This document shows, one piece after another, positions 11,744-63,851 of a stretch of 64,000 nt of DNA. The notes beneath the pieces were generated by a model. That model ran no database searches. It had not been told where the DNA came from and was given only the letters and a program-made list of their open reading frames with translations. The position numbers were made by a program, and so were the translations under genes. The first letter of the stretch is position 1, and the number at the start of each line of letters is the position of its first letter. The DNA is taken from positions 1 through 64,000 of the IMG/VR virus record IMGVR_UViG_3300029905_000002; one strand, 5' to 3'. This DNA is from a virus.

Positions 11744-11989
11744 TTAAAGGGATCCCAAGAATTCCTCTAAAGTCATCTCCTTATTCCCATCTATCCTTAC
11801 CACATCCACCCTTCTTTTCATTTCATCTAAACTCCAAGGTATCTCATCCTCAAATAAAAACTCATTCCCATAGAAAGTAAACCATCCCACTTTGAAATAA
11901 GAATAACCAAGGTTTATAAAATCTCCATTATCATAATACCCCTCAATAGGTATTCTCTTAAATCCTTCAATCCTCATAATAATACTCAA
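11744..11989 (-). CDS. hypothetical protein
   Basis: ORF track; part of the minus-strand packed array. Confidence 0.5.
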   Translation of the reverse strand: MSIIMRIEGFKRIPIEGYYDNGDFINLGYSYFKVGWFTFYGNEFLFEDEIPWSLDEMKRRVDVVRIDGNKEMTLEEFLGSL

Positions 11990-12290
11990 ATCTAAATCCT
12001 TTCACTTGCTTATAAATCCCTTTGCATACCTTAGATATAGAGCTATCAGAAATACCCAATTCTTTAGAGGCAGCTCTTATATTAGGGTATATTTTCCTAT
12101 TAGTATTACAAAATACTGCTCTAGAAGATCCCTTATTATAGCCCCAAGATTTCCTATTTAGTACCATCTTCTTAATCCTATCCCTTTGCATCTCTAAAGT
12201 CTTAGGATCATAGATTTCCTCCCACCTATTACCTTCAGCAAAGTTATTGCCTTTACCAAAATGCCCATTAGGTAATCTGTATTTCCTCAT
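11967..12290 (-). CDS. putative DNA-binding protein with a NUMOD1/IENR-like helix-turn-helix
   Basis: The C-terminal block IYPNIRAASKELGISDSSISKVCKGIYKQVKGFRFEYY resembles DNA-binding modules of homing endonucleases. No nuclease motif was seen. Confidence 0.4.
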   Translation of the reverse strand: MRKYRLPNGHFGKGNNFAEGNRWEEIYDPKTLEMQRDRIKKMVLNRKSWGYNKGSSRAVFCNTNRKIYPNIRAASKELGISDSSISKVCKGIYKQVKGFRFEYYYED

Positions 12291-12291
12291 C

Positions 12292-12633
12292 CTAGTAATC
12301 TATGCCTTTGCGTTCAATGATTAGGTTCCCTGTCTCATGATCGTTATAGGTCCAGGAAGGAAGGTTCTCAAAGGGTCCTTCTGCAGGCTTATCTTTTGAA
12401 ACTTGATATCCTATCACTACCCAGAACCAGGCAATTAGGATTCCATGAAGTACCCATTGAAGTTTACCAAATGCCTTGAATCCGAACTTAAAGTATAAAG
12501 CAATCCAAATCACTGGGTAGATGGGAAAGATTATAATCAGAAGGATAATTAATCCTCGGATAAGCATGGAGGTAGTAGAATCCATTGTGGTTCCTACTCT
12601 CCTAAAATTTCTATCATAGTGGGTATATATCAT
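12292..12633 (-). CDS. hypothetical membrane protein
   Basis: Several hydrophobic segments (LIRGLIILLIIIFPIYPVIWIALYF, LHGILIAWFWVVIGY). Confidence 0.5.
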   Translation of the reverse strand: MIYTHYDRNFRRVGTTMDSTTSMLIRGLIILLIIIFPIYPVIWIALYFKFGFKAFGKLQWVLHGILIAWFWVVIGYQVSKDKPAEGPFENLPSWTYNDHETGNLIIERKGIDY

Positions 12634-13633: not shown

Positions 13634-13738
13634 ATCACATAAATTTAATGATTTATATCAAATAGCTCAGGTATATAGAACTTAGCTAAGGATTTGAGCA
13701 ATACCGAGTAATCCCTAATATAACCATATTGATCGATT

Positions 13739-14329
13739 ATGATAACTAACGAAATGTTTCAGAAACTCGGAGAGAAGTTCTCAATAGAACCAGCTCTCCT
13801 GAAAGCTGTTGCCATAGTAGAATGTGGTTTAGACCTTAATGGATTCTTGGCAGATGGTAAACCTAAGATTTTATTCGAAGGCCATATCTTCTACAAAGAA
13901 CTCCTCAAGGTAAACCCCAAAGCTACGGTAGTAAGAATCTCTAGATCCCATCCTTCGATTTGTTATGAATCCTGGACAAGGCAATTCTATCTCGGAGGTA
14001 TGGATGAGTATGATCGGTATAATGAAGCCAGGAAAATCCATCCAGAATGTGCTATGCTTGCAACTTCCTGGGGATTTCCTCAAATCATGGGCTTCAATTA
14101 CCAATACTGCGAATGTGAAACTGTGATGGAATTCGTTCGAAAGATGAAGGCATCAGAGGAATCCCAAATGGAACTCTGGTACAAATTCCTTAAGAACCAA
14201 AACCTAGTGGGATATTTGCAGGAGCACGATTGGGAAGGGTTCACTCTTAAGTATAATGGGCCCGGTCAAGTGAAACTTTATAGTCAGAGATTAAGTAACT
14301 CTTATAATAACTTGAAAGGTAAACTATGA
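13739..14329 (+). CDS. endolysin, N-acetylmuramidase family (DUF3380-like)
   Basis: Blocks EPALLKAVAIVECG, GKPKILFEGHIF, SWGFPQIMGFN and YNGPGQVKLYSQRL match the conserved pattern of this muramidase family, as recalled from memory. Confidence 0.8.
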   Translation: MITNEMFQKLGEKFSIEPALLKAVAIVECGLDLNGFLADGKPKILFEGHIFYKELLKVNPKATVVRISRSHPSICYESWTRQFYLGGMDEYDRYNEARKIHPECAMLATSWGFPQIMGFNYQYCECETVMEFVRKMKASEESQMELWYKFLKNQNLVGYLQEHDWEGFTLKYNGPGQVKLYSQRLSNSYNNLKGKL

Positions 14330-25779: not shown

Positions 25780-28700
25780 ATGTACTTAAGTAAATACTAC
25801 ACTTGCGAAGAAATAGACCAACGGCTACTCCAGGGATACTTCGATGACTTCGTAAAAGCTGGATTTGTTGGCACTATTCAGGAGTTCTGGGCTTTTGTAC
25901 TTTCTATCTCAAACAAGGTAGATAAGAAAGAAGGCTACGGATTGTCTAAGAATGACTTTACCGATGAACTCTTAGAGAAATTGAATGGGATAGAAGAACA
26001 TGCTAATTATGTTACTAAAGTATCCCAGTTGGAAAATGACAAGAACTATCAAACTGCTGATGATGTTAAAACGGCCATCTCCAATTTGGTAGATGGAGCA
26101 GATGATGCTCTTGATACTCTTAAGGAATTAGCAGAGGCTTTGGGTAATGATCCAAACTTTGCTACTACTATTACAAATAAACTTACGGCTCTGAGAAATG
26201 AGTTGTTAGAAGAGGTTAATCGGGCTACTGCTGCTGAAACCGATCTAGACAACAAAATTATTCAGTTACGTACCGATATAACCAATATTTTCAAGGATCT
26301 TGAGCAAAAGCTTACTCTGGTAATTCAAGATATTAATACTAAAATTGATAACTTGAATACCAGAGTTGATGAAGATATTGCTAATCTGGCTGCTTATAAA
26401 ACCGAAATGGCTACCACGGTTGCCAACGCTCGAGCTGAAGCTAAGGCTTATACTGATGCAGAAACTACTCGGGCAAAAGAAGCAGAAGCTGCTTTAGCTC
26501 AAGCAGACCATGATCTCAAGGTTCAACATACTAGGGATAAGGCCGAACTTCAGGCATCCATTGCTGCAGAAACTGCTGCAAGAGAACAAGCAGATCAGAA
26601 TATCACTAATTCCTTAGCTGCAGAACAACAATCAAGAATTTCAGAAGATGCAGCTATACGCCAAGAATTTGCCAAAGCAGATCAGCAAATTAAGGATACT
26701 TATGTACCTTACGTAAATGTAAGTACTACTGAGTTACCTAACCGTAAAGCAATTATATTACCATCTTATGGAGATGTAATCCTTGCTACTGGTCCTGATG
26801 GAACTCAATATTCTTTGGCTCAGCTTAATCGTTGGGGAATTATGGACTTTGGTAATCCTGCTTTCCCTCTTAATTTAAATGTTCCTGCAGGAGATAGACC
26901 TACTGTTCAAGAGGCTGGACAATCTGGTGAGGAAGCTCATGACTTGGCATATCTTGAAGATGTCCAGAAATGGTTTGGTAAGATTGATATCCCGGCTCAG
27001 TACCAGGATGCTGCAGTAGTTCAGTTGATTCCTACTCTTGAGCAATCCTATATTGATGATTTAGGCAATCCTGATACCATCAATGGAGAACCCTTCAATG
27101 CTACATCAAATACTTATAAGATTGGGGATCCCTATCTGTCAATTGCTTACTTTGATGAAGCTTTGGTAATGCACTATCATCTGTATAATGCAAACAACTC
27201 TTACAATGTTGGAGCTGTATTCTATGCAATGATGGATTATGCCAAGAAAAACCAAGAAGACCATGATGCAATTAGACAGGAAATCAAGGATTCACAGACT
27301 TCGACTGATAACATCAAAGATGAACTCCTTACCGCGATTCAGGAAGAAGCAAAGGCTAGAGAAGAAGCTGACCAGGCTTTGGATGATAAGAAGGTTGATA
27401 AGAAGGAAGGATATGATCTTTCAAAGAATGACTTTACTGATGAGCTTCTAGAAAAACTGAATGGCATTGAGGAAGGAGCAAATAAGATCACTGCCTTGTC
27501 TCAGCTTCTCAATGATACTGATTTCCAAAATAGTACTCAAGTAAACGAAGCTATTGAAAAGGTTATTGGTTCTGCTCCCGAAGTACTTGATACTCTGGAA
27601 GAGATTGCCAAAGCTCTGGGAGATGATCCTAACTTCTCAGCAACTATTACTAAGAAGTTAGCAGCTCTGGCTGAGGATATTAATTCTGAGGAAGAAGCCC
27701 GTATTGCTGCGGATACCCAACTTCAAACCAATATCGATAATCTTGGTACACAAACTGATACTAAGCTTACTCAGCTCAGTAATCAGTTCCAAACTAAGAT
27801 TGATACCGAAGCTCAGACTCGTCAGGAAGCCGACCAGGCTCTTCAGAAAGGTCTTACCAATGAGGCTACTGAAAGGCAGGCTTCCGTCAATCAGTTAACT
27901 CAGGCCTTAACCCAGGAATACTCAGATCGTCAATCTGCTGACCAGAATCTCCAAACCCAGATTACCCAGCTTGCCAATAACATGGCTGATCAAGGTACAT
28001 CCCTGATTGAGTATGTAAATGGTATTCGGGATACTTTGCAGAAGGGTATTACCGATAACACTAAACTTATTAATACCAATACTGCTAATATCCAACGTAA
28101 TTTAGAACTCATCCAGGGTCTTCAGGAAACGGTAAATAGTACGGTAGATAACGTAACTAACCTTCTGAATCGCCTTGAACAAGAGATCAAAGATCGGAAG
28201 GATGCTGATACAATTCTTCAGGGTAATATCGATACAGTAGCTACGAACTTGGCAACTGAAACTGCTAATCGAATCGCTGCTGACCAGGTACTCCAGGATA
28301 ATATCGATAAGCTTCAGCAAGATACTCAAACGTCCATTAGGGAATTAGAGCAAAAGCATGATACCGAGATGGCTCAGGAAATTGCTAATAGGCAAGCTGC
28401 TGATAAAGCCATCCAAGATCAAATTGATACATTCCCTGATAATATAAGGGTTAATGAGGCAATTACTACTCGTGATGCTAGTCAAATAGTAGTTACTTAT
28501 ACTTATAAATATAAGGATGCTCAGAAAAAGTACACTGGAGAGAATACTAATCCTGTCACTTTACCAGCTGTTACATCTACTTTAGCAGGTCTTATGACTG
28601 CTGAAGATAAGAATAAGCTTGAGCAGGTAATAGTGGATTTAGCCACTGAAACCAATAATCGTATTAATCAGGATAATATCCTTCAGGATAATATCGATAC

Positions 28701-28824
28701 TCTGTCCCAAACTCATCAAGACGATATTGAGGCTCTCCAGAATATGATTCAATCTCAGGAACAGAGAATTCAACAACTTGAAAAGTTAGTAGCTGAATTG
28801 TATGCTGCTTTAACTCTTAAATAA
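25780..28824 (+). CDS. long coiled-coil fiber protein with an internal duplication
   Basis: 1014 aa. The fiber-type block KKEGYxLSKNDFTDELLEKLNGIEE...LDTLxExAxALGxDPNF occurs twice. Long heptad-like Q/A/E/D-rich stretches. AGLMTAEDKNKLE motif. Confidence 0.75.
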   Translation: MYLSKYYTCEEIDQRLLQGYFDDFVKAGFVGTIQEFWAFVLSISNKVDKKEGYGLSKNDFTDELLEKLNGIEEHANYVTKVSQLENDKNYQTADDVKTAISNLVDGADDALDTLKELAEALGNDPNFATTITNKLTALRNELLEEVNRATAAETDLDNKIIQLRTDITNIFKDLEQKLTLVIQDINTKIDNLNTRVDEDIANLAAYKTEMATTVANARAEAKAYTDAETTRAKEAEAALAQADHDLKVQHTRDKAELQASIAAETAAREQADQNITNSLAAEQQSRISEDAAIRQEFAKADQQIKDTYVPYVNVSTTELPNRKAIILPSYGDVILATGPDGTQYSLAQLNRWGIMDFGNPAFPLNLNVPAGDRPTVQEAGQSGEEAHDLAYLEDVQKWFGKIDIPAQYQDAAVVQLIPTLEQSYIDDLGNPDTINGEPFNATSNTYKIGDPYLSIAYFDEALVMHYHLYNANNSYNVGAVFYAMMDYAKKNQEDHDAIRQEIKDSQTSTDNIKDELLTAIQEEAKAREEADQALDDKKVDKKEGYDLSKNDFTDELLEKLNGIEEGANKITALSQLLNDTDFQNSTQVNEAIEKVIGSAPEVLDTLEEIAKALGDDPNFSATITKKLAALAEDINSEEEARIAADTQLQTNIDNLGTQTDTKLTQLSNQFQTKIDTEAQTRQEADQALQKGLTNEATERQASVNQLTQALTQEYSDRQSADQNLQTQITQLANNMADQGTSLIEYVNGIRDTLQKGITDNTKLINTNTANIQRNLELIQGLQETVNSTVDNVTNLLNRLEQEIKDRKDADTILQGNIDTVATNLATETANRIAADQVLQDNIDKLQQDTQTSIRELEQKHDTEMAQEIANRQAADKAIQDQIDTFPDNIRVNEAITTRDASQIVVTYTYKYKDAQKKYTGENTNPVTLPAVTSTLAGLMTAEDKNKLEQVIVDLATETNNRINQDNILQDNIDTLSQTHQDDIEALQNMIQSQEQRIQQLEKLVAELYAALTLK

Positions 28825-30428: not shown

Positions 30429-31208
30429 ATGAAATGGATACAGATAAATCAGACATCTATTGGAGCCCAAGATTATAATTTGGTAGAGAAAGTTGGAGAG
30501 GATGTGAATGTATTTTCTCCTAGTCTTTATAAGGCTATTGATTTAGGCTTACCAAGTGGACTTTTATGGGCTGATAGGAATATAGGAGCTGCTACTCCCG
30601 AGGATGGTGGCTTATATTTCCAATGGGGAGATACCCAAGGATATACGGCCGAGCAAGTAGGTGACGGGGAAGGATTAAAGGCATTTAGTTGGACTGATTA
30701 TAAGTGGAGTGTTGATGGTTCTTCAGATAACTTCTCGAAATACAATAATACGGACAATAAAACGGTTCTCGATTCAGAGGATGATGCAGCACATGTAAAT
30801 ATGGGTGGAAATTGGAGAATGCCAACATCCGATGAATACAAGGAATTGTGTCTTAATACTGACATTTACTTAGTTCTGACAGAGGGTGAAGAAATACAAG
30901 GCACTGCACAAGAGCAAAGCGGAAGAGTAATGATTAACTGGGCGTCTCAGGCAGAAGGAACTTTGAAAGGTGTTAAATTCTATAAGAAGGGCGACAAACA
31001 AACATATATGTTTGTTCCTGTTTCTAGTGTAGCTTACGATGGCCCTATTCAGGATGTCGGTGAGGACGGCGCCTTGTGGTCTTCTTCGCTTCGTTCTTCA
31101 GATGTTCAAGATGCGTGGGACTTCGGCTTCAATGCGGGCTACGGCGGCATCGTCGGCGGCTTTCGGTTCATCGGTATTTCCGTTCGTGGAGTTAAAGAAA
31201 CAATTTAA
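30429..31208 (+). CDS. FISUMP (Fibrobacter succinogenes major paralogous) domain protein
   Basis: GLLWADRNIGA, GLYFQWGD, GGNWRMPTSDEYKEL, LWSSS and a GISVRGVKE end match the TIGR02145-type pattern. Confidence 0.65.
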   Translation: MKWIQINQTSIGAQDYNLVEKVGEDVNVFSPSLYKAIDLGLPSGLLWADRNIGAATPEDGGLYFQWGDTQGYTAEQVGDGEGLKAFSWTDYKWSVDGSSDNFSKYNNTDNKTVLDSEDDAAHVNMGGNWRMPTSDEYKELCLNTDIYLVLTEGEEIQGTAQEQSGRVMINWASQAEGTLKGVKFYKKGDKQTYMFVPVSSVAYDGPIQDVGEDGALWSSSLRSSDVQDAWDFGFNAGYGGIVGGFRFIGISVRGVKETI

Positions 31209-31221
31209 AATATAAAACAAT

Positions 31222-33072
31222 ATGGCATATGTAAATTTCTGGAAGGGTCTAGAAGCGAATTATAATTCGGAGACTCATAAAGATGGTATTTACCAATGTA
31301 CCGATACTGGTAATACCTATATATTTGGAGTTCTTAATAAGAATTCTATTGGGTATGAGGATAAATATTGCATTGCAGAGTGGTCTGATGATCCTAATCA
31401 ATTAGAAATTCTAAATCTCCAAGGAGATTTAGAATTTGCTCGTGACTACCATCCTGTATTAGTAGATACTCGGGATAATCAGAACGAGACAACTAAAATA
31501 GTTGGTATGTTGATGGATAACAACATTTTGAGATTTTCGGATGGATCATTTGCTCCTGCTGTTTGTATTACACCTGAAAGAAAGGCTGAATGTGATGTAG
31601 AGCTTTATTTAGACCCTGATCATACTCAAAAATACTGTGATGCTGGTACTTTTAATCCCGTAGATTTTTATAATGAATACGGGATGGCCGATTTGTATGA
31701 TATAAATGGTAATAAAGTTAATGTATTACGTCCCTGGGAAACTACAGAAACTTATTATTCGAATATGATCACTAGATCTTCAACGGTTTATCATTTAGAT
31801 CGTCAAAAAGGAGCTTCTGGTAGAATTTGGAGTGGAATATTCGGTAGGCCAGTAAATTGGGATGGTATAGATATTACAGAATTTAAACTAGTACCAACAG
31901 GTCTTTCAGCATCTAAGTGTTGTACTATAGATGGTAAATTGAGATCTTTTTATTATCTCTTTGAGGCAGATCATGCTAATTGTAAATCTAATAAGACTTT
32001 GGATGGTATAGATGTAGTTGGTACTACTAAAGCAGTATTTCCTAGAATTTCTGATATTTCTCAAATTACTGCTATGAACTATGCTCGGGCTAATAATTCA
32101 GATCCTACGAAACCTTATCCATTTGCAGAAGGAGGTTTGCCGGCTTTGTTGGTATTTTCTACTTGTTTGGAGATCTACAATAAGACCAAAAATATCACTG
32201 GTATTTACGGTAGTGGTAGTTCTTCTAATGACAATATTGATGTAGATACTGTTGAAGATAAAGGTGGTCTTAGGATTAATGGTACCTCAGTTCTCAAGTT
32301 TAATCAGAATATTACTTATGGTGATGGTAATGTAAATTATTTATCATATTATCTTTCGAGTTATAAACCTCTATTTCCCTGTATGGAGCCCATTGTAGCA
32401 GCTTCTTATGCTAATGAAAGGAAGATTGCAGATGGAGAATGGTTTGAATTCTATGGTAATCAATATAAGGTTACTAGAATTTACCCAGATAAACTTGATT
32501 GCATTGTAATCAAGAAAATATCTTTTACTAAAGGGTCAGATAATATGGAGCTCTTTATTAGGGCTTCTATTACTTTTGGGGCTAATTATATGGGAGATAT
32601 TTGGGCTTATGTAGGAGGTGGATATGAAACGGTGGGTACTTGTAGTAATGTAACTCCAGGAGCTAATGGTGTTGGTCAAACTAATGAATGTTATATTCAA
32701 TATGATCAAACTCAATGGCATAGTGAAACTGCAATATATAAGGATGATTTGGGTAAGTTTGATTTTGAATCTACTTATAAGAAGGTTTCTACTTTCCAAG
32801 ATATATCAGACGGATGGAGAGATGATCGTATCCCAAATACTCCCTGTTCAGTTACACGAGTTTCAAATAGTCAACAAGGAGATAGCTTCTATAACTGGAT
32901 GAATAATTATTGGGGAACAGTATTGAATAGGAGAGTCAGACGAGAAATGGCAATGTTTGCGAGGTCGTCCTTTGCAGAATGTTCTCTTCGTACTTGTGAT
33001 CTGAACGATCCTGTTTCTCATACTAACCTCAACATTTCTTGCCTTGCCCAAGCCCAATTAGACTTAGGTTAA
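31222..33072 (+). CDS. DGR target protein: tail fiber/receptor-binding protein with a C-terminal variable region
   Basis: The N-terminus MAYVNFWKG...TYIFGVL is homologous to fiber 28833..30350. The last ~38 codons contain the VR. Confidence 0.85.
   Translation: MAYVNFWKGLEANYNSETHKDGIYQCTDTGNTYIFGVLNKNSIGYEDKYCIAEWSDDPNQLEILNLQGDLEFARDYHPVLVDTRDNQNETTKIVGMLMDNNILRFSDGSFAPAVCITPERKAECDVELYLDPDHTQKYCDAGTFNPVDFYNEYGMADLYDINGNKVNVLRPWETTETYYSNMITRSSTVYHLDRQKGASGRIWSGIFGRPVNWDGIDITEFKLVPTGLSASKCCTIDGKLRSFYYLFEADHANCKSNKTLDGIDVVGTTKAVFPRISDISQITAMNYARANNSDPTKPYPFAEGGLPALLVFSTCLEIYNKTKNITGIYGSGSSSNDNIDVDTVEDKGGLRINGTSVLKFNQNITYGDGNVNYLSYYLSSYKPLFPCMEPIVAASYANERKIADGEWFEFYGNQYKVTRIYPDKLDCIVIKKISFTKGSDNMELFIRASITFGANYMGDIWAYVGGGYETVGTCSNVTPGANGVGQTNECYIQYDQTQWHSETAIYKDDLGKFDFESTYKKVSTFQDISDGWRDDRIPNTPCSVTRVSNSQQGDSFYNWMNNYWGTVLNRRVRREMAMFARSSFAECSLRTCDLNDPVSHTNLNISCLAQAQLDLG
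32957..33051 (+). repeat. DGR variable repeat (VR)
   Basis: 95 nt matching TR at a constant offset of 253. The 5 mismatches (32969, 32972, 32998, 33007, 33019) are all opposite TR adenines. Confidence 0.9.
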
Positions 33073-33087
33073 GATTCCGCAGGAATC
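33073..33087 (+). promoter_or_regulatory. Hairpin immediately 3' of VR and the stop codon
   Basis: gattcc-gca-ggaatc, a 6-bp stem beginning 1 nt after the TAA. The position is analogous to the DGR target-recognition hairpin. Confidence 0.5.
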
Positions 33088-33209
33088 TATAGTTATAGTG
33101 AGCGCAGCGAACATTAAAAATCTTAAGGGCTCCTAACAAGAGTAACATTGGGATTACTCCTCTGAAGTAGGACACTTAAGTTGGAAAAATGGATGGGTAT
33201 AGCGAGATC

Positions 33210-33304
33210 TTGCGAGGTCGTACTATGCAGAATGTTCTCTTCGTACTTGTAATCTGAACAATCCTGTTTCTAATACTAACCTCAACATTTCTTGCCTTGC
33301 CCAA
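33210..33304 (+). repeat. DGR template repeat (TR)
   Basis: Noncoding copy of VR with about 23 adenines. In the VR frame it reads LARSYYAECSLRTCNLNNPVSNTNLNISCLAQ, rich in AAY codons. Confidence 0.9.
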
Positions 33305-33442
33305 AATGGGAACTTAAATGGCCGTACCTATTCATACTCAGAAGTAGTAAACTATAAGACAACCTACTCAGGATACTTATCGATTGGGGTATGTATTAGA
33401 GGAGTAGGTCCTACCTATGGTAGGATAAAGCCCATTCTTTAT

Positions 33443-34798
33443 ATGTTAGAAAATATAATAACTAAAGAACTCGTAGATCAGGCCATTGTCAAAGCTAGTA
33501 AACATAAACTAAATCGTTCAGAAGTACAGAAGGCTTTAAAAAACAAAGAGAGATTATCTGATCGACTTTATGAAAGTATTCTGGATGGTACTTATTCTAA
33601 ATATATTAGGTATACAGACAGAATAAAAATCGGTCACAATAAAAAAGTAAGGCATATTAAAATGCCATCCTTTAAAACTCTAAGCCTTCAGCACCTCTGT
33701 ATCTTCATGATAAAAAGGTTTTATGATAGAGTAGATAATTTAAATGGTTTAAACTGTAAAGAGGGTTGTGGTATAACTTCTAAGAATCGAAGAAAATCTG
33801 TTTTGAAACGAGTTAAACATATCTTCTTTGATAAGAGAGATGCTAATTACTTATTAATCATCGATCAAAGGAAATGTTATGAGCATATATCTCCCAGTAT
33901 ATTTAGGGCTCAAGCTAAGAAGTTAATACCTGACCATGAGCTTATAGATTTTATAATATCGGTATGTTTCTTTAATAAGAAATTACCTATTGGAGCTCCA
34001 ACATCTTCTCTTATACATCATGTTATTATGTTAAGATCTGATTATTTTGTTCGGAGTTTAGTGGGTATGAAAGGTTCTGTGAGATATGCCGATGATAATC
34101 TAATAGCCTTTGATACAAAAGAAAATGCTAATACTGCTAAGTGGAGAATTATGAACTTTTGGTGGTATGAGTATAAAATAAGGAATAAATCATTAACTAC
34201 TCGTGTAATACCTATCATTCAGAAGAACATAGATTTTTGTGGATTTGTATTTAATCGAAACTTAGGTAAGAAGATTACGGATCATAATAAAGGCTATGTT
34301 AAAATACGATGTGATACTCTTACTAGATTAACTAGAGTAAAGGATATAAAAGCTTTACCAGCTTATTTGGGCTTAATAAAACAATCTGATTCGTATAATT
34401 TTTTAAAACATTCAAGCGAACATAATATGAAGTTACTTGAATTAACCCGTAAAATTAAGATTGAACGTAAGTTTGATGCCGATAACATAGACATAAAAGA
34501 TCTGATAGGGAAATCTTTTGTCTTGATAGATTATGAGATTCGAGAAAAAGATAATAAACCTAGTTGGATGAAATGTTTGGTTGGGTTAACTAAAGATGTT
34601 AGTAAATCTAGGAAAGAAGTAAGGGTTTATGAATTTCATGGAAATTTTCAATACTTGATGAGATATCTTTTAGAGATAGAGAAGAAGTTAAGTAGGGAAG
34701 ATTTTTTACCTATTACTGATTGTAGTATAGAAGATAGGTGTGGTTATATCTTTAAAGGTAGTACTAAAGTAATCGATTATATAAACTTAAAATCTTAA
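33443..34798 (+). CDS. DGR reverse transcriptase
   Basis: Motifs IIDQRKCYEHI, LPIGAPTSS and RYADDNLIAF. It lies 140 nt downstream of TR. At 451 aa it has about 130 aa beyond the RT/thumb region. Confidence 0.85.
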   Translation: MLENIITKELVDQAIVKASKHKLNRSEVQKALKNKERLSDRLYESILDGTYSKYIRYTDRIKIGHNKKVRHIKMPSFKTLSLQHLCIFMIKRFYDRVDNLNGLNCKEGCGITSKNRRKSVLKRVKHIFFDKRDANYLLIIDQRKCYEHISPSIFRAQAKKLIPDHELIDFIISVCFFNKKLPIGAPTSSLIHHVIMLRSDYFVRSLVGMKGSVRYADDNLIAFDTKENANTAKWRIMNFWWYEYKIRNKSLTTRVIPIIQKNIDFCGFVFNRNLGKKITDHNKGYVKIRCDTLTRLTRVKDIKALPAYLGLIKQSDSYNFLKHSSEHNMKLLELTRKIKIERKFDADNIDIKDLIGKSFVLIDYEIREKDNKPSWMKCLVGLTKDVSKSRKEVRVYEFHGNFQYLMRYLLEIEKKLSREDFLPITDCSIEDRCGYIFKGSTKVIDYINLKS

Positions 34799-34803
34799 TA
34801 AGT

Positions 34804-35670
34804 ATGAGTACATATTCAAAAAATCTTGTACAGATTCACCGTAGTAATTCTGACTATGGAGAAAACGATCTGGTAAAGGGCAATAAACTGATTAAGACTT
34901 TTGGTAGAACTAAAGATATATACTATTTCTTTCATCAAACTCAGAAAGAAATGTATCAAGAAACTTCCGAATCCGATCCTTTAGAAGTTGAGGTAGTTTA
35001 TGCTTTACCCGTTGTGGTAGATGTTAATACAGATTATGATACTATAGTAAGAGAAGCTATAAAAGCTTTTTATGGTATTAAAACTGATTCAGATTACATT
35101 AATCTGTTAGAAACTCTCTATGGAGAATTTTATACTAACCCGAGTAAATCAGAATATATACTTTTGGTAGATGAGATCAAGTCTCAATTGAATTCTTATG
35201 GCTTTTTTAATAAGTCTAATAAGTCTATTAGTAATCTTTCTTCGGGTATTTCTTTAATTGAATCCTTGGTAGCTATTCAAGAGATTATTAAAGAAGGTAG
35301 TTTAAACCTTCCAGATGAATCAGTAGTAAAGTTAAAGAATTTTTATGAACCCTGGGAATCTTTTATTGGTAAACCAATGAAATTGGGTACTATCTTTACT
35401 TATAATGGATCTTTGTATAAGGCTATTATCGATATAGATTCAGTAGTAAGTACTTGGATACCTGGGTTTTCTACTCTAAATATATATAATCCAATATCGG
35501 AGCATACTGGTTCCGAAGAAGATCCTATACCCTATAGTAAGGGTATGTCTTTGAAAAATACTTTGTATTATACTGAAAACAACATATTGTATCAGTGTAT
35601 CATAGATTGTATACCCACTTTGATTACTCTATCGGAGCTTTGTGAATTAAAGTACGTTACTAAAGTATAA
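34804..35670 (+). CDS. hypothetical protein downstream of the RT
   Basis: 288 aa. The C-terminus carries two similar aromatic blocks (FTYNGSLYKAIIDIDSVVSTWIPG and LYYTENNILYQCIIDCIP), which look like a carbohydrate-binding module. This is a weak call. Confidence 0.5.
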   Translation: MSTYSKNLVQIHRSNSDYGENDLVKGNKLIKTFGRTKDIYYFFHQTQKEMYQETSESDPLEVEVVYALPVVVDVNTDYDTIVREAIKAFYGIKTDSDYINLLETLYGEFYTNPSKSEYILLVDEIKSQLNSYGFFNKSNKSISNLSSGISLIESLVAIQEIIKEGSLNLPDESVVKLKNFYEPWESFIGKPMKLGTIFTYNGSLYKAIIDIDSVVSTWIPGFSTLNIYNPISEHTGSEEDPIPYSKGMSLKNTLYYTENNILYQCIIDCIPTLITLSELCELKYVTKV

Positions 35671-38750: not shown

Positions 38751-40505
38751 ATGCCAGTATCACCGTATGTAAAATTTCAGTTTGTGAACAAAAATGTTCA
38801 GCAAACTACTCCCCAACTTGGGGTTTCTCTGTTCCTGGCTAGAACCACTAAAGGCCCTTATGATGATCCTTCCGAATTGCTCAACAGCTTTTCTCAATTC
38901 CAAAGAATCTTTGGTGATGAGATAGTACCTGATGGTTCGGTATCAAATATCCAAAAGGCCTTTGAAGAAGGCTCTAAGCTCAGGATTATTCGTGTACTTG
39001 GTAAAGGTGCTACTAAAGGTACAGTATCCGCAACTGCTGCTGAATCTTTGGCTGTAGAAGCAGAAGAGGATGATGTACAAGTAATGTCAGCTACTCCCGA
39101 ACCTGCTGAGCCTGAAACTTTGATTAAGATTACCTCTAATGGTGTATCTTATGGTTTCGGATTGGTAACTAAAGGTTATGGAGATTCAATAGGTGATGGA
39201 GATACCTTCCAAGTAGGATTCTATATGCAAGCCAATACCTTGTATTACAGAATCTATAGTGCTAATGGCCAAGTTCTTGAACAAGGCCCAGTAATGACCT
39301 GGAAGACTGCCGATGATGTAAATGATACATCTTTCGACTATCTGGCTCTCTCTAATTTTATCAATAATTCCGAGTACATCTCGGCAATGATTACTGAAGG
39401 TAGTTCACTTGACAATATGATTAAGTGGCTTACTGATTCGGTAGATAATACCAAGAATGCCGTTACCGTTACGGTAGGTGGCTCTGCTCCTACTACTGAG
39501 GAAACTAAATTCGATGGTACGGTAGGATCTGCAGGTACAGATCCTACTGCCGAGGAATGGATTGCTTCCCTGGACTTCATCAGAGATTACCAAGATATTT
39601 ACCATGTAGCTTGCTCTCACCTGGATCAGCATATAAAGGAAACTGCAGATCAGCTCAAGGTACATAAAGCTGCTGGAGACTTGGCAAATGAACTTGAGGA
39701 ATTTGTTTACTGTATCGAGGTACCTAAGTACCAAACTCATTATACTCAAGGCCAACAGCCCAGAGATTATAAGAGCATCTGTACTTGGATTGATACTACT
39801 CTTGGTACTGTAGGTAATTCCAAATTCATTGCCTACTTCTCATGCGGCCTTAAGTATTACAATGCTCAAGGAAATCTTAGTAACTGTGATGTTATGGGTA
39901 CTGTATTTGGATTAGCAGATACTTCTGCAACCGCTTACGGGCCCTGGAGAAGCTTTGCTGGTATGAATAGAGGTATAGCTTATGATGCTAATGGTCCGGT
40001 ATCTCCGAACTACGGAGCTCCTTCTCGTTACGAACAACTTAACGAATTGGCTCAGCATTATGCTAATACCTTCGTAATCAAGGATACTCCTTCTTCCGGT
40101 AAGAGAACTATGCTTTGGCATTGCTTCACTTCTCAGGTTAAACAGGATTCTTACAGATTCCTCTCTATTGTTCAGCTCAGTCTGTACCTGAAGAAGAGTC
40201 TCAGACCTATACTTGATAAGTATATTGAAGAGCCTAACGTATGGTCCACTTGGAAGAACATCTACCTGGAAGGCAAACCCATTATGGATAACCTGGTAGA
40301 TCAGGATGCTATCTCGGAATATACCTGGATGGGTGACCAGGATGCTTCTTCTTGGGCAGATCTCCAGGTTAACAATGAGGCAGATGCTCGTCAAGGTAAG
40401 TATAAACTTATCATTAAGTTCAAAGATATCGTTCCTATGCAGGAAGTTACAGTTGTACTTAAGACTGATGCTGCTTCTAATACAGTTAATGTTTCATTTG
40501 AATAA
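38751..40505 (+). CDS. tail sheath protein
   Basis: 584 aa, followed by a T4 gp19-like tube gene. Size and order are typical of contractile tails. Confidence 0.7.
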   Translation: MPVSPYVKFQFVNKNVQQTTPQLGVSLFLARTTKGPYDDPSELLNSFSQFQRIFGDEIVPDGSVSNIQKAFEEGSKLRIIRVLGKGATKGTVSATAAESLAVEAEEDDVQVMSATPEPAEPETLIKITSNGVSYGFGLVTKGYGDSIGDGDTFQVGFYMQANTLYYRIYSANGQVLEQGPVMTWKTADDVNDTSFDYLALSNFINNSEYISAMITEGSSLDNMIKWLTDSVDNTKNAVTVTVGGSAPTTEETKFDGTVGSAGTDPTAEEWIASLDFIRDYQDIYHVACSHLDQHIKETADQLKVHKAAGDLANELEEFVYCIEVPKYQTHYTQGQQPRDYKSICTWIDTTLGTVGNSKFIAYFSCGLKYYNAQGNLSNCDVMGTVFGLADTSATAYGPWRSFAGMNRGIAYDANGPVSPNYGAPSRYEQLNELAQHYANTFVIKDTPSSGKRTMLWHCFTSQVKQDSYRFLSIVQLSLYLKKSLRPILDKYIEEPNVWSTWKNIYLEGKPIMDNLVDQDAISEYTWMGDQDASSWADLQVNNEADARQGKYKLIIKFKDIVPMQEVTVVLKTDAASNTVNVSFE

Positions 40506-63042: not shown

Positions 63043-63354
63043 ATGAAACTTAAATCATTCTTTCATAAGGAATCCGAAAACAATGATCGGATCATTTATC
63101 TTAATCTTGCTAACCTTATTAGTATATTTCCCATTAATAGGAGTGATCAAAGCTTGAATGTATATTTATACGGTTTCAATTGTATATTTAATAATGGGTT
63201 AGTTCTCAGAGTTACTTTGGAATCGAATTCTGAATCAGTACCACCTCTTCTATCTGAACTCAGAGATCTATTTATACATAACTTCGGATTCTCTATCATA
63301 AAGATAGACCGATATTATTATAAGGATATTAATTTTAGATTTAACATGCTATGA
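63043..63354 (+). CDS. hypothetical protein
   Basis: Track ORF 62998..63354 (TTG start) trimmed to the first ATG at 63043. Confidence 0.4.
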   Translation: MKLKSFFHKESENNDRIIYLNLANLISIFPINRSDQSLNVYLYGFNCIFNNGLVLRVTLESNSESVPPLLSELRDLFIHNFGFSIIKIDRYYYKDINFRFNML

Positions 63355-63851
63355 GTAAGAAGAAGAATCAAAAAACACCTTACTTACGAAGAATACCAGG
63401 ATATTCTTCTAAGTATCTAGTATCAAGGGATGGTTATATTTATAAAGAAACTAAGTATGGGTTTTTTGAATTAAAACCATCACAGGTTCACAATGGGTAT
63501 CTAACTATAAGCATACCAAGAGAAGGTACTTGTGTTAAACATAGAACTAAGATACATAGATTAGTAGCTTTAGCTTTTATACCCAATCCTAATCAATGTG
63601 ATCTGGTAATACACTTAAACAATGATCCCACTGATAATAGAGTAGAGAATCTTAAATGGGGTACTCAAGGAGAGAACATGCAACAGATGGTTAAGGATGG
63701 TAGACAAAGAAAATCTAAATTCTTATTAAAGTACTTGGATAGGATATTAAAACTCAGGGATCAAGGGTTTTCTCCAAGTGAAATCTCTAGAATCTTAGAC
63801 ATAAGTAAAACTTCTACTTACAGAGCCATTAAAAAATCCTCAAATTTATGA
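63351..63851 (+). CDS. HNH homing endonuclease (HNH_3 type) with a C-terminal HTH
   Basis: GYLTISI...HRLVALAFIPNP...VIHLNNDPTDNRVENLKWGTQGENMQQ. C-terminal FSPSEISRILDISKTSTYRAIKK. Confidence 0.8.
   Translation: MSKKKNQKTPYLRRIPGYSSKYLVSRDGYIYKETKYGFFELKPSQVHNGYLTISIPREGTCVKHRTKIHRLVALAFIPNPNQCDLVIHLNNDPTDNRVENLKWGTQGENMQQMVKDGRQRKSKFLLKYLDRILKLRDQGFSPSEISRILDISKTSTYRAIKKSSNL

Follow-up and report, generated by a model that had tools for sequence, protein, structure and literature searches.

The stretch analysed here (the window) comprises 64,000 nt of viral DNA, positions 1 to 64,000 of IMG/VR virus record IMGVR_UViG_3300029905_000002, and carries a cassette that, judging from its sequence, is an intact, working-looking diversity-generating retroelement (DGR). 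All parts of the cassette lie on the + strand, in the order target gene with a variable repeat (VR) at its 3' end, template repeat (TR) and reverse transcriptase (RT). The assignment follows from adenine-specific mismatches between the repeats, intact catalytic motifs in the RT and a fold match to the RT of the Bordetella DGR (bRT). Very likely, the region is an accessory-free DGR of the clade to which crAssE-Sib belongs, is carried by a probable Bacteroidales myovirus and diversifies a tail fibre. The clade is marked by an RT of ~450 aa, a motif 4 of the form [I]GxxxS[P/S] where SQ is usual, a specific C-terminal RT domain and the lack of the accessory protein Avd.

Target gene and repeats

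The target gene (31222–33072, + strand) encodes a 616-aa protein that is assigned to the tail-fibre or receptor-binding proteins by homology: it is 55% identical to its counterpart in contig L002, described below, and its residues 30–615 are 35% identical to crAssE-Sib's receptor-binding protein (RBP). No match was found in Pfam or PHROG. The crAssE-Sib RBP model is C-type-lectin-like according to its authors (PMC11054128), and from the 35% identity a similar fold may be expected for the target. Comparison of the repeats places a 95-nt VR in the 3' end of the target (32957–33051, + strand), 21 nt ahead of the stop codon, and a 95-nt TR at 33210–33304 (+ strand), the 3' end of which lies 138 nt upstream of the RT start. 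Adenines number 23 in the TR, which has six AAY codons when read in the frame of the VR. The two repeats differ at five of 95 nt, all at TR adenines (p = 5.8e-4 in a hypergeometric test, given 23 A among the 95 nt) and all in codon positions 1–2, so that the window holds a TR/VR pair differing at template adenines. The bias extends to the clade: of the 421 VR/TR differences in 29 RT clusters whose repeats are ungapped, 388 fall at TR adenines, although the TRs are only 24% A. The VR is unusually near its template, with five differences against 9–20 in relatives. The 64-kb window contains no second VR.

The last ~16 nt of the VR (33036–33051) are the same as in the TR, are GC-richer and occupy the position of the initiation of mutagenic homing (IMH) site. 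Right after the target stop codon, a hairpin of 6 bp with a GCAG loop can be read from the sequence (33073–33088, + strand; GATTCC-GCAG-GGAATC), giving the arrangement of an IMH at the VR 3' end followed by a hairpin or cruciform. Essentially all related loci have one to three short hairpins 20–70 nt 3' of the VR, with GCAG, GCAA or TGCAA loops, and in ~30 of them GCAG- or GCAA-loop hairpins stand just 3' of the VR. The Bordetella phage DGR uses a DNA hairpin/cruciform after the VR for target recognition, and the hairpin at 33073–33088 is probably a candidate for the same role.

Absence of Avd

Between the target stop (33072) and the RT ATG (33443) lie 370 nt, in which the first-pass annotation had seen no accessory gene. 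This is borne out: the interval 33073–33442 has zero ORFs (open reading frames) of at least 40 aa on the + strand and only two on the - strand (48 and 42 aa), which are taken to be spurious, and Avd was not found in the 64-kb window. For the latter, 49 non-overlapped ORFs of 75–230 aa from the whole window were concatenated and compared with Pfam, without a match to PF22296 (bAvd) or PF05635 (23S-rRNA-IVP). Other families did come up in the same scan, namely a muramidase, a gp19-like tail tube, gp25, an HNH endonuclease, LysM and holins, with scores down to 13–17 bits, and the Avd of Bordetella phage BPP-1, used as a positive control, matches PF22296 at 7e-36. Avd had no match among the RT neighbours in the related loci inspected. 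Pfam scans of neighbouring genes in the window yielded no HRDC or MutS-like match. Avd is recognized by a profile match and as a basic helical bundle of ~128 aa; neither the module encoded downstream of the RT (isoelectric point, pI, ~5) nor the C-terminal domain of the RT (~5.9) has these properties.

Reverse transcriptase core and motif 4

The RT gene (33443–34798, + strand) is intact and encodes 451 aa, with YADD at Y215-A216-D217-D218 and motif 4 reading P182-I183-G184-A-P186-T-S188-S189 (IGAPTSS at 183–189). The translation thus agrees with the first-pass annotation on protein length, on YADD and on IGAPTSS in place of the SQ form. Residues 1–337 (33443–34453, + strand) make up the core, with N-terminal extension, fingers, palm and thumb delimited by Pfam RVT_1, phrog_1423, AlphaFold2 (AF2) and Foldseek. 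The AF2 model of the whole RT has a mean predicted local distance difference test (pLDDT) of 85 and a predicted template modelling score (pTM) of 0.67. Its best Protein Data Bank (PDB) match is bRT (8ub7_A; E 1.9e-13, template modelling (TM) score 0.77 normalised to the target), an alignment of 336 columns of the query taking in the complete 328-aa chain. With both the RVT_1 match and the bRT fold match, a DGR-type RT lies next to the TR.

The [I/V/L]GxxxSQ signature is not present in this RT, which retains the first residue, I183. A protein search returned 218 RT homologues, and among the best 120 motif 4 ends in SP in 113, SS in six, SA in one and SQ in none. I183 and R70 are invariant across the clade and are the likely counterparts of I181 and R74, which promote adenine mutagenesis in bRT (PMC7826257). 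Q187P, a substitution in bRT, has no effect on its misincorporation at adenines (PMC7826257). Given this neutrality and the adenine mutagenesis of a clade without SQ, the SS ending poses a problem of detection and is not a sign of another mechanism. It is unlikely to matter much for function, and the last residue of motif 4 appears to be a diagnostic aid that does not define the mechanism.

C-terminal domain of the reverse transcriptase

The AF2 model extends the thumb helices to ~337, places a low-confidence linker at 326–341 and ends in a globular domain at ~345–440 (34475–34762, + strand), also delimited by conservation and profile search. The first-pass annotation was right that the protein continues beyond the thumb, but the extension is smaller than it supposed, ~110 aa in place of ~130, by the AF2 boundaries and the alignment with 8ub7_A. 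Modelled alone (pLDDT 75), the domain has three long beta strands, one helix and short strands. Among the RT homologues its conservation equals that of the catalytic core, and its hidden Markov model matches 120 of 120 RT loci. Against 1.84 billion representative proteins, its profile retrieves 110 clusters only. In the full-length matches (434–611 aa) the domain is always C-terminal, as in the window; the short matches that were inspected look like fragments, and one was traced to an RT split by a frameshift. In that locus (L124, 400–1712), frame 1 encodes residues 6–190 and frame 3 residues 189–448, so that gene callers report a false "standalone" C-terminal domain; a standalone copy was accordingly rejected in the one case checked. 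The split gene fits a published remark that many RTs of the clade are fragmented.

The structure prediction and profile comparison that had been proposed for this region give a beta sheet with a helix and no known fold. The domain matches no Pfam domain and no PDB sequence, a Foldseek search of the PDB gives no fold match (best E 0.22), and the sole significant match in BFVD is to a phage protein of 602 aa that carries the annotation LtrA-like. A nucleic-acid-binding fold of the oligonucleotide/oligosaccharide-binding (OB-like) kind was considered and dropped, there being no match whatever. The median pI is 5.9 in the clade, where the domain is usually acidic to neutral, and 8.9 in the window copy. 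Comparison with Avd by hhalign gives a probability of 1.8%. By these sequence comparisons, the domain is a conserved one, specific to this RT clade and not Avd-like. That the region might prove to be common to an Avd-dependent RT clade had been foreseen as an objection: it is indeed a clade-wide feature, but no Avd was found in the related loci examined.

Structured RNA between the template repeat and the reverse transcriptase

The spacer between TR and RT (33305–33442, + strand) contains a structured RNA, as indicated by covariance, distribution and the minimum free energy (MFE) fold. Its first element, P1, is a covarying hairpin of 4 bp with a 7-nt loop, CAGAAGU (33335–33349, + strand), ~30 nt 3' of the TR. 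The loop has the consensus YWGRARY and is followed by the near-invariant UAUAAGACAAG, the window copy of which is UAUAAGACAA (33353–33362, + strand). Over 28 clusters P1 is 97% paired, with compensatory changes in all four pairs, and none of 500 shuffles is as good; controls slid along the alignment reach 30–62% pairing. A covariance model (R1) was built from the P1/UAUAAGACAAG region and searched against sources many of which are not in the model. It finds 62 strong matches and a marginal one (L122, 17 bits) over 66 RT-bearing sources, one per locus. The matches are always on the RT strand, and between TR and RT wherever the RT start is mapped. None occurs in four RT-less loci or elsewhere in 850 kb. 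The match in the window spans 33321–33366 (E 7.8e-7).

Two stems follow, P2 (33363–33408, + strand) and P3 (33409–33425, + strand), both from the stem test and the MFE fold. As the whole-spacer alignment is too gapped for a consensus fold, an anchored sub-alignment and rule-based stem tests were used instead. P2 starts exactly 2 nt past AGAC in 22 of 30 clusters, where shuffles predict 6.5, and P2 is succeeded by P3 in 17 of 30, where they predict 1.2; from cluster to cluster the stems vary in sequence. The MFE fold of the window spacer contains P2, P3 and a possible closing pairing of 33305–33310 with 33431–33436 (+ strand). In several loci, and in this fold, the TR 3' flank can be seen to pair with the stretch preceding the RT; such long-range pairing is not claimed, as the RNAduplex test is not significant. 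In relatives, a third, degenerate IMH-like copy (consensus UGCYCAARCUUG) stands 10–40 nt before the RT start and corresponds in the window to AAGCCCAUU (33426–33442). In sequence it is closer to the VR-side flank than to the TR-side flank, and it can pair with the TR 3' flank in several loci.

No Rfam family matches the spacer RNA (32800–33600 searched). The RT of the Bordetella element is wrapped by the RNA 3' of the TR, which also supplies the priming nucleotide and holds an Avd-binding stem-loop (bioRxiv 10.1101/2023.10.23.563531), and the published conservation analysis of that RNA covers Avd-containing DGRs only (bioRxiv 10.1101/2023.10.23.563531). A clade-specific spacer RNA with covarying hairpins is a new result, matched by no Rfam family and not mentioned in the crAssE-Sib paper. 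By analogy with Bordetella, the clade probably uses it as the scaffold that binds the RT and serves in priming.

The downstream gene

An ORF of 288 aa (34804–35670, + strand), placed by synteny and profile searches, follows the RT. Its syntenic copy in L002 is 39% identical, compared with 55% for the target and 47% for the RT of that contig. Its N-terminal ~135 aa (34804–35223, + strand) form, by profile search, a module of an acidic unannotated family, and its C-terminal half (about 35263–35610, + strand) is weakly CBM5/12-like in Pfam and PHROG searches, with phrog_30034 and phrog_27545. The module family comprises at least 220 clusters, most of them standalone proteins of 123–148 aa that are acidic (pI ~5), and the module has no match in Pfam, PHROG or the PDB. 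What lies C-terminal to it varies: the partner is absent, CBM5/12-like or of a third type.

The first-pass annotation had suggested that this gene might replace the accessory protein, and that related contigs be surveyed for its conservation with the RT. Co-occurrence is frequent, the module gene starting within a few nt of the RT stop, often overlapping it, in 26 of 35 RT clusters; it fails in the other nine, among them an epsilon crAss-like cluster of 43 loci. Of four family members traced to contigs, two directly follow a large target-like protein with neither RT nor TR (L087/L088 and L093/L094), and the C-terminal ~570 residues of these large proteins are 36–54% identical to DGR targets. 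The module is therefore separable from the RT in both directions and is not an obligatory RT cofactor, which disposes of the suggestion in that form. An hhalign comparison with Avd gives a probability of 0.1%. The gene most likely encodes a partner protein of the virion or tail fibre, alongside which the TR-RT unit is located, and it is not demonstrably part of the DGR. Copies of the module were located at L087 6001–6369, L093 6001–6447 and L019 7307–7690; they come directly after target-like tail-fibre genes, with or without an intervening TR-RT unit, and lysis genes often come next.

Relatives and comparison with known DGRs

At the DNA level, the cassette had no megablast match in a set of 50,697 phage records, nor did a single-sequence scan of IMG/VR give one, so that protein and profile searches were required. 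The best 120 of the 218 RT homologues are almost all 440–460 aa long and 42–48% identical, with 98% query coverage. IMG/VR holds at least 207 relatives of the RT, and 29 species-representative genomes, nearly all Bacteroidales, carry it. Every related locus inspected, whether in a crAss-like genome, in other phage contigs (including a myovirus) or in prophages, has the target/VR-TR-RT order with no gene between. The nearest relative of the three-gene block lies in L002 (ERZ13617142 NODE_29, 77.6 kb), a contig with a crAss-type capsid gene. With the same block in a myovirus here, this indicates that it has moved between unrelated phage types.

The best match among phage records is the RT of crAssE-Sib, an epsilon crAss-like phage whose DGR was published in 2024 in Viruses (OR575929.1; 42.8% identity, residues 25–448). 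The record annotates VR, IMH, TR, IMH* and RT, and no Avd. Its authors report GxxxSP in place of GxxxSQ, which causes the myDGR program to miss the element (PMC11054128). The program finds no DGR in crAssE-Sib or other epsilon crAss-like genomes, where many relatives have fragmented RTs, and it detected the crAssE-Sib DGR once the motif was altered to SQ in silico (PMC11054128). Avd, the C-terminal domain and the spacer RNA are not discussed there (PMC11054128). The window RT has full-length homology that includes the C-terminal domain, a GxxxS[P/S] motif and the spacer RNA motif, and thus belongs to the crAssE-Sib-type clade. The two elements share the homologous RT with its C-terminal domain, the target/VR-TR-RT order without Avd, a non-SQ motif 4, a homologous target (35% identity) and the same spacer RNA motif. 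However, crAssE-Sib is a crAss-like podovirus, while the virus here has a contractile tail with a sheath, gp25 and a gp19-like tube; the last two residues of motif 4 are SP there and SS here; and the ~130-aa module gene follows the RT in the window but not in crAssE-Sib.

The wider comparison bears on the suggestion of a variant DGR organisation, which does not hold up as a novelty. Among 372 DGRs, 29% have no accessory gene (Architecture A), and ~20% of DGR RTs extend past the thumb by up to about 150 aa with no recognisable motif (PMC5758913). Lineage 3 is wholly without avd, its sublineage 3A is confined to Bacteroides and relatives, and distal avd genes were not found in avd-less genomes (PMC5758913). 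The cassette resembles Architecture A1 and the avd-less lineages of Wu et al. (2018) in its TR-RT core, its adjacent upstream target, the lack of a detected accessory gene and the motif-less post-thumb extension; the association with relatives of Bacteroides recalls Lineage 3A, a likeness by description and not by tree. Avd-less DGRs, extended DGR RTs and this RT clade (PMC11054128) are all previously published, and what the window adds is the myovirus host background and the SS variant of the motif.

With the BPP-1 DGR, the cassette shares the RT fold (N-terminal extension, fingers, palm and thumb; TM 0.77 over all of bRT), adenine-specific mutagenesis, a VR in the 3' end of the gene for a receptor-binding protein, a structured RNA 3' of the TR and a hairpin just past the VR. 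It differs in the lack of an Avd gene, in SS for SQ, in an RT identity of only 18%, in spacer RNA elements unrelated in sequence and in the extra ~110-aa C-terminal domain, as bRT has no additional subdomain. In zeta crAss-like phages, the DGRs are likewise phage-borne and mostly Avd-less, and target a tail-fibre C-type lectin domain (PMC12386605). Their RTs, however, keep GxxxSQ and are shorter where reported (399–414 aa; PMC12386605), and they are only distantly related to the window RT. The crAss-like RTs cr55_1, cr10_1 and cr50_1, of unspecified subgroup, are ~24% identical to the window RT, mostly over residues 1–330.

Possible mechanism and alternative explanations

In an accessory-free DGR of this kind, the TR and its 3' spacer would be transcribed, and the spacer RNA (P1, UAUAAGACAAG, P2 and P3) would act as the Bordetella 'Sp' RNA does, which binds the RT and places the site of priming. 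The resulting cDNA would take the place of the VR in the tail-fibre gene's 3' end and so alter receptor specificity, and the C-terminal domain and the spacer RNA may jointly make Avd unnecessary. Taken further, the RT clade could be a self-sufficient one-protein DGR engine in which the C-terminal domain and the spacer RNA form a ribonucleoprotein that positions primer and template by an Avd-independent route, an idea that we regard as tentative and somewhat doubtful. Several observations weigh against these proposals. For the entire spacer of the window, folding is not significantly more favourable than for shuffled sequences (z = -1.65), and the long-range closing stem fails a crude RNAduplex-versus-shuffle test (median z -0.36). 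The role proposed for the C-terminal domain is read only from its clade-wide conservation and its restriction to these RTs; the domain is usually acidic, follows a low-confidence linker and has an unreliable placement relative to the core, as the pTM of 0.67 reflects. The negative for Avd or another cofactor covers the window, 64 kb of a possibly larger genome. Moreover, most zeta crAss-like DGRs, with reported RT lengths of 399–414 aa, manage without an Avd gene, so that a missing Avd needs no substitute.

The same precedent bears on a more specific proposal, that the ~110-aa domain is a fused replacement of Avd which binds the RNA 3' of the TR and activates the RT as the Avd pentamer does. 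Its presence in 120 of 120 loci of an Avd-less clade, its core-like conservation, its confinement in full-length proteins to the C-terminus of these RTs and the position of the clade-specific RNA, which sits where the Bordetella Avd-binding stem-loop sits, all speak for such a replacement. However, neither sequence, profile nor fold betrays any likeness to Avd, the predicted beta sheet and helix contrasting with a helical bundle, and a median pI of 5.9 contrasts with the highly basic Avd (PMC5758913). In addition, Avd is a pentamer that touches the RT at its N-terminal extension, ~40 Å away from the active site (bioRxiv 10.1101/2023.10.23.563531), an arrangement different from that of a single tethered C-terminal domain. 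On balance, we consider a fused Avd replacement possible but unlikely. Still less probable is that the substitute is encoded by the downstream gene, whose N-terminal module would then be a new accessory and might correspond to CH1, the accessory (pI 4.7, 160–169 aa) restricted to avd-less Bacteroides DGRs of Lineage 3a, architecture E1 (PMC5758913). The module is indeed acidic and small, resembles CH1 by description, lacks annotation and stands at the RT stop in most clusters, from differing phage backgrounds. Yet its absence from nine clusters and its position directly after target-homologous fibre genes without RT or TR show that it tracks the fibre and not the RT. Its variable C-terminus is the pattern of modular virion proteins, and hhalign finds next to no similarity to Avd.

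The cassette might also be a decaying or inactive relic, or its RT might belong to the retron or group II class, with the non-SQ motif marking lost DGR function. The VR differs from the TR at only 5 of 23 adenines, which counts against a working DGR; myDGR passes over crAssE-Sib and the epsilon crAss-like elements, many relatives have fragmented RTs, and one (L124) is frameshifted. NCBIfam also gives retron and group II RTs as the best names, although the scores fall far below the curated cut-offs (retron St85, 46.5 versus 235; group II, 27.5 versus 300). With no retron or intron RNA found by Rfam in 32800–33600, a retron or group II intron identity was rejected. As the RT gene is intact with YADD and conserved over its whole length, as the top structural match is the DGR bRT, as the non-SQ motif is clade-wide in a clade with abundant adenine-specific VR/TR divergence and as Q187P has no effect on adenine misincorporation by bRT (PMC7826257), a relic or an RT of another class is very improbable, and the accessory-free DGR is the reading that we prefer.

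Three leads go beyond the published accounts consulted, although none is yet evidence for a new mechanism: the C-terminal domain confined to these RTs, the spacer RNA specific to the clade and the ~130-aa module linked to the fibre gene. The accessory-free DGRs of this clade nevertheless offer a compact system for Avd-free DGR reverse transcription, with a defined extra RT domain and a covarying RNA beside the TR. Since myDGR missed the crAssE-Sib element until SQ was introduced in silico, detectors that depend on SQ are likely to under-count a clade with at least 207 IMG/VR relatives and clear adenine-specific diversification. If the one-protein proposal were true, many gut Bacteroidales phages would make adenine-mutagenic cDNA by a distinct mechanism that does without Avd, and a single-protein DGR would be of interest for DGR-based continuous-evolution tools.

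Phage background

The cassette lies between tail-fibre genes and a tail-completion gene. The window includes contractile tail genes (a sheath at 38751–40505, a gp19-like tube and gp25), and the carrier is probably a gut myovirus with a Bacteroidales host. Promoter and terminator scans returned site counts below, or no higher than, those in shuffles. Upstream, the target is adjoined by a 259-aa ORF (30429–31208) with weak, sub-threshold matches to Lcl_C/DUF1566-type and Fib_succ_major domains and with no VR corresponding to the TR. Both domain types are frequent folds of DGR targets. In a 1014-aa fibre-like protein (25780–28824), the segment DKKEGY(G/D)LSKNDFTDELLEKLNGIEE occurs once close to the N-terminus and again in mid-protein, which suggests an internal duplication of a coiled-coil module. 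The window also encodes an N-acetylmuramidase (13733–14326), two holin-like ORFs and two putative homing-endonuclease-type genes (11970–12299, - strand; 63345–63848, + strand), one of which is I-HmuI NUMOD-like and the other HNH_3 with a helix-turn-helix (HTH).

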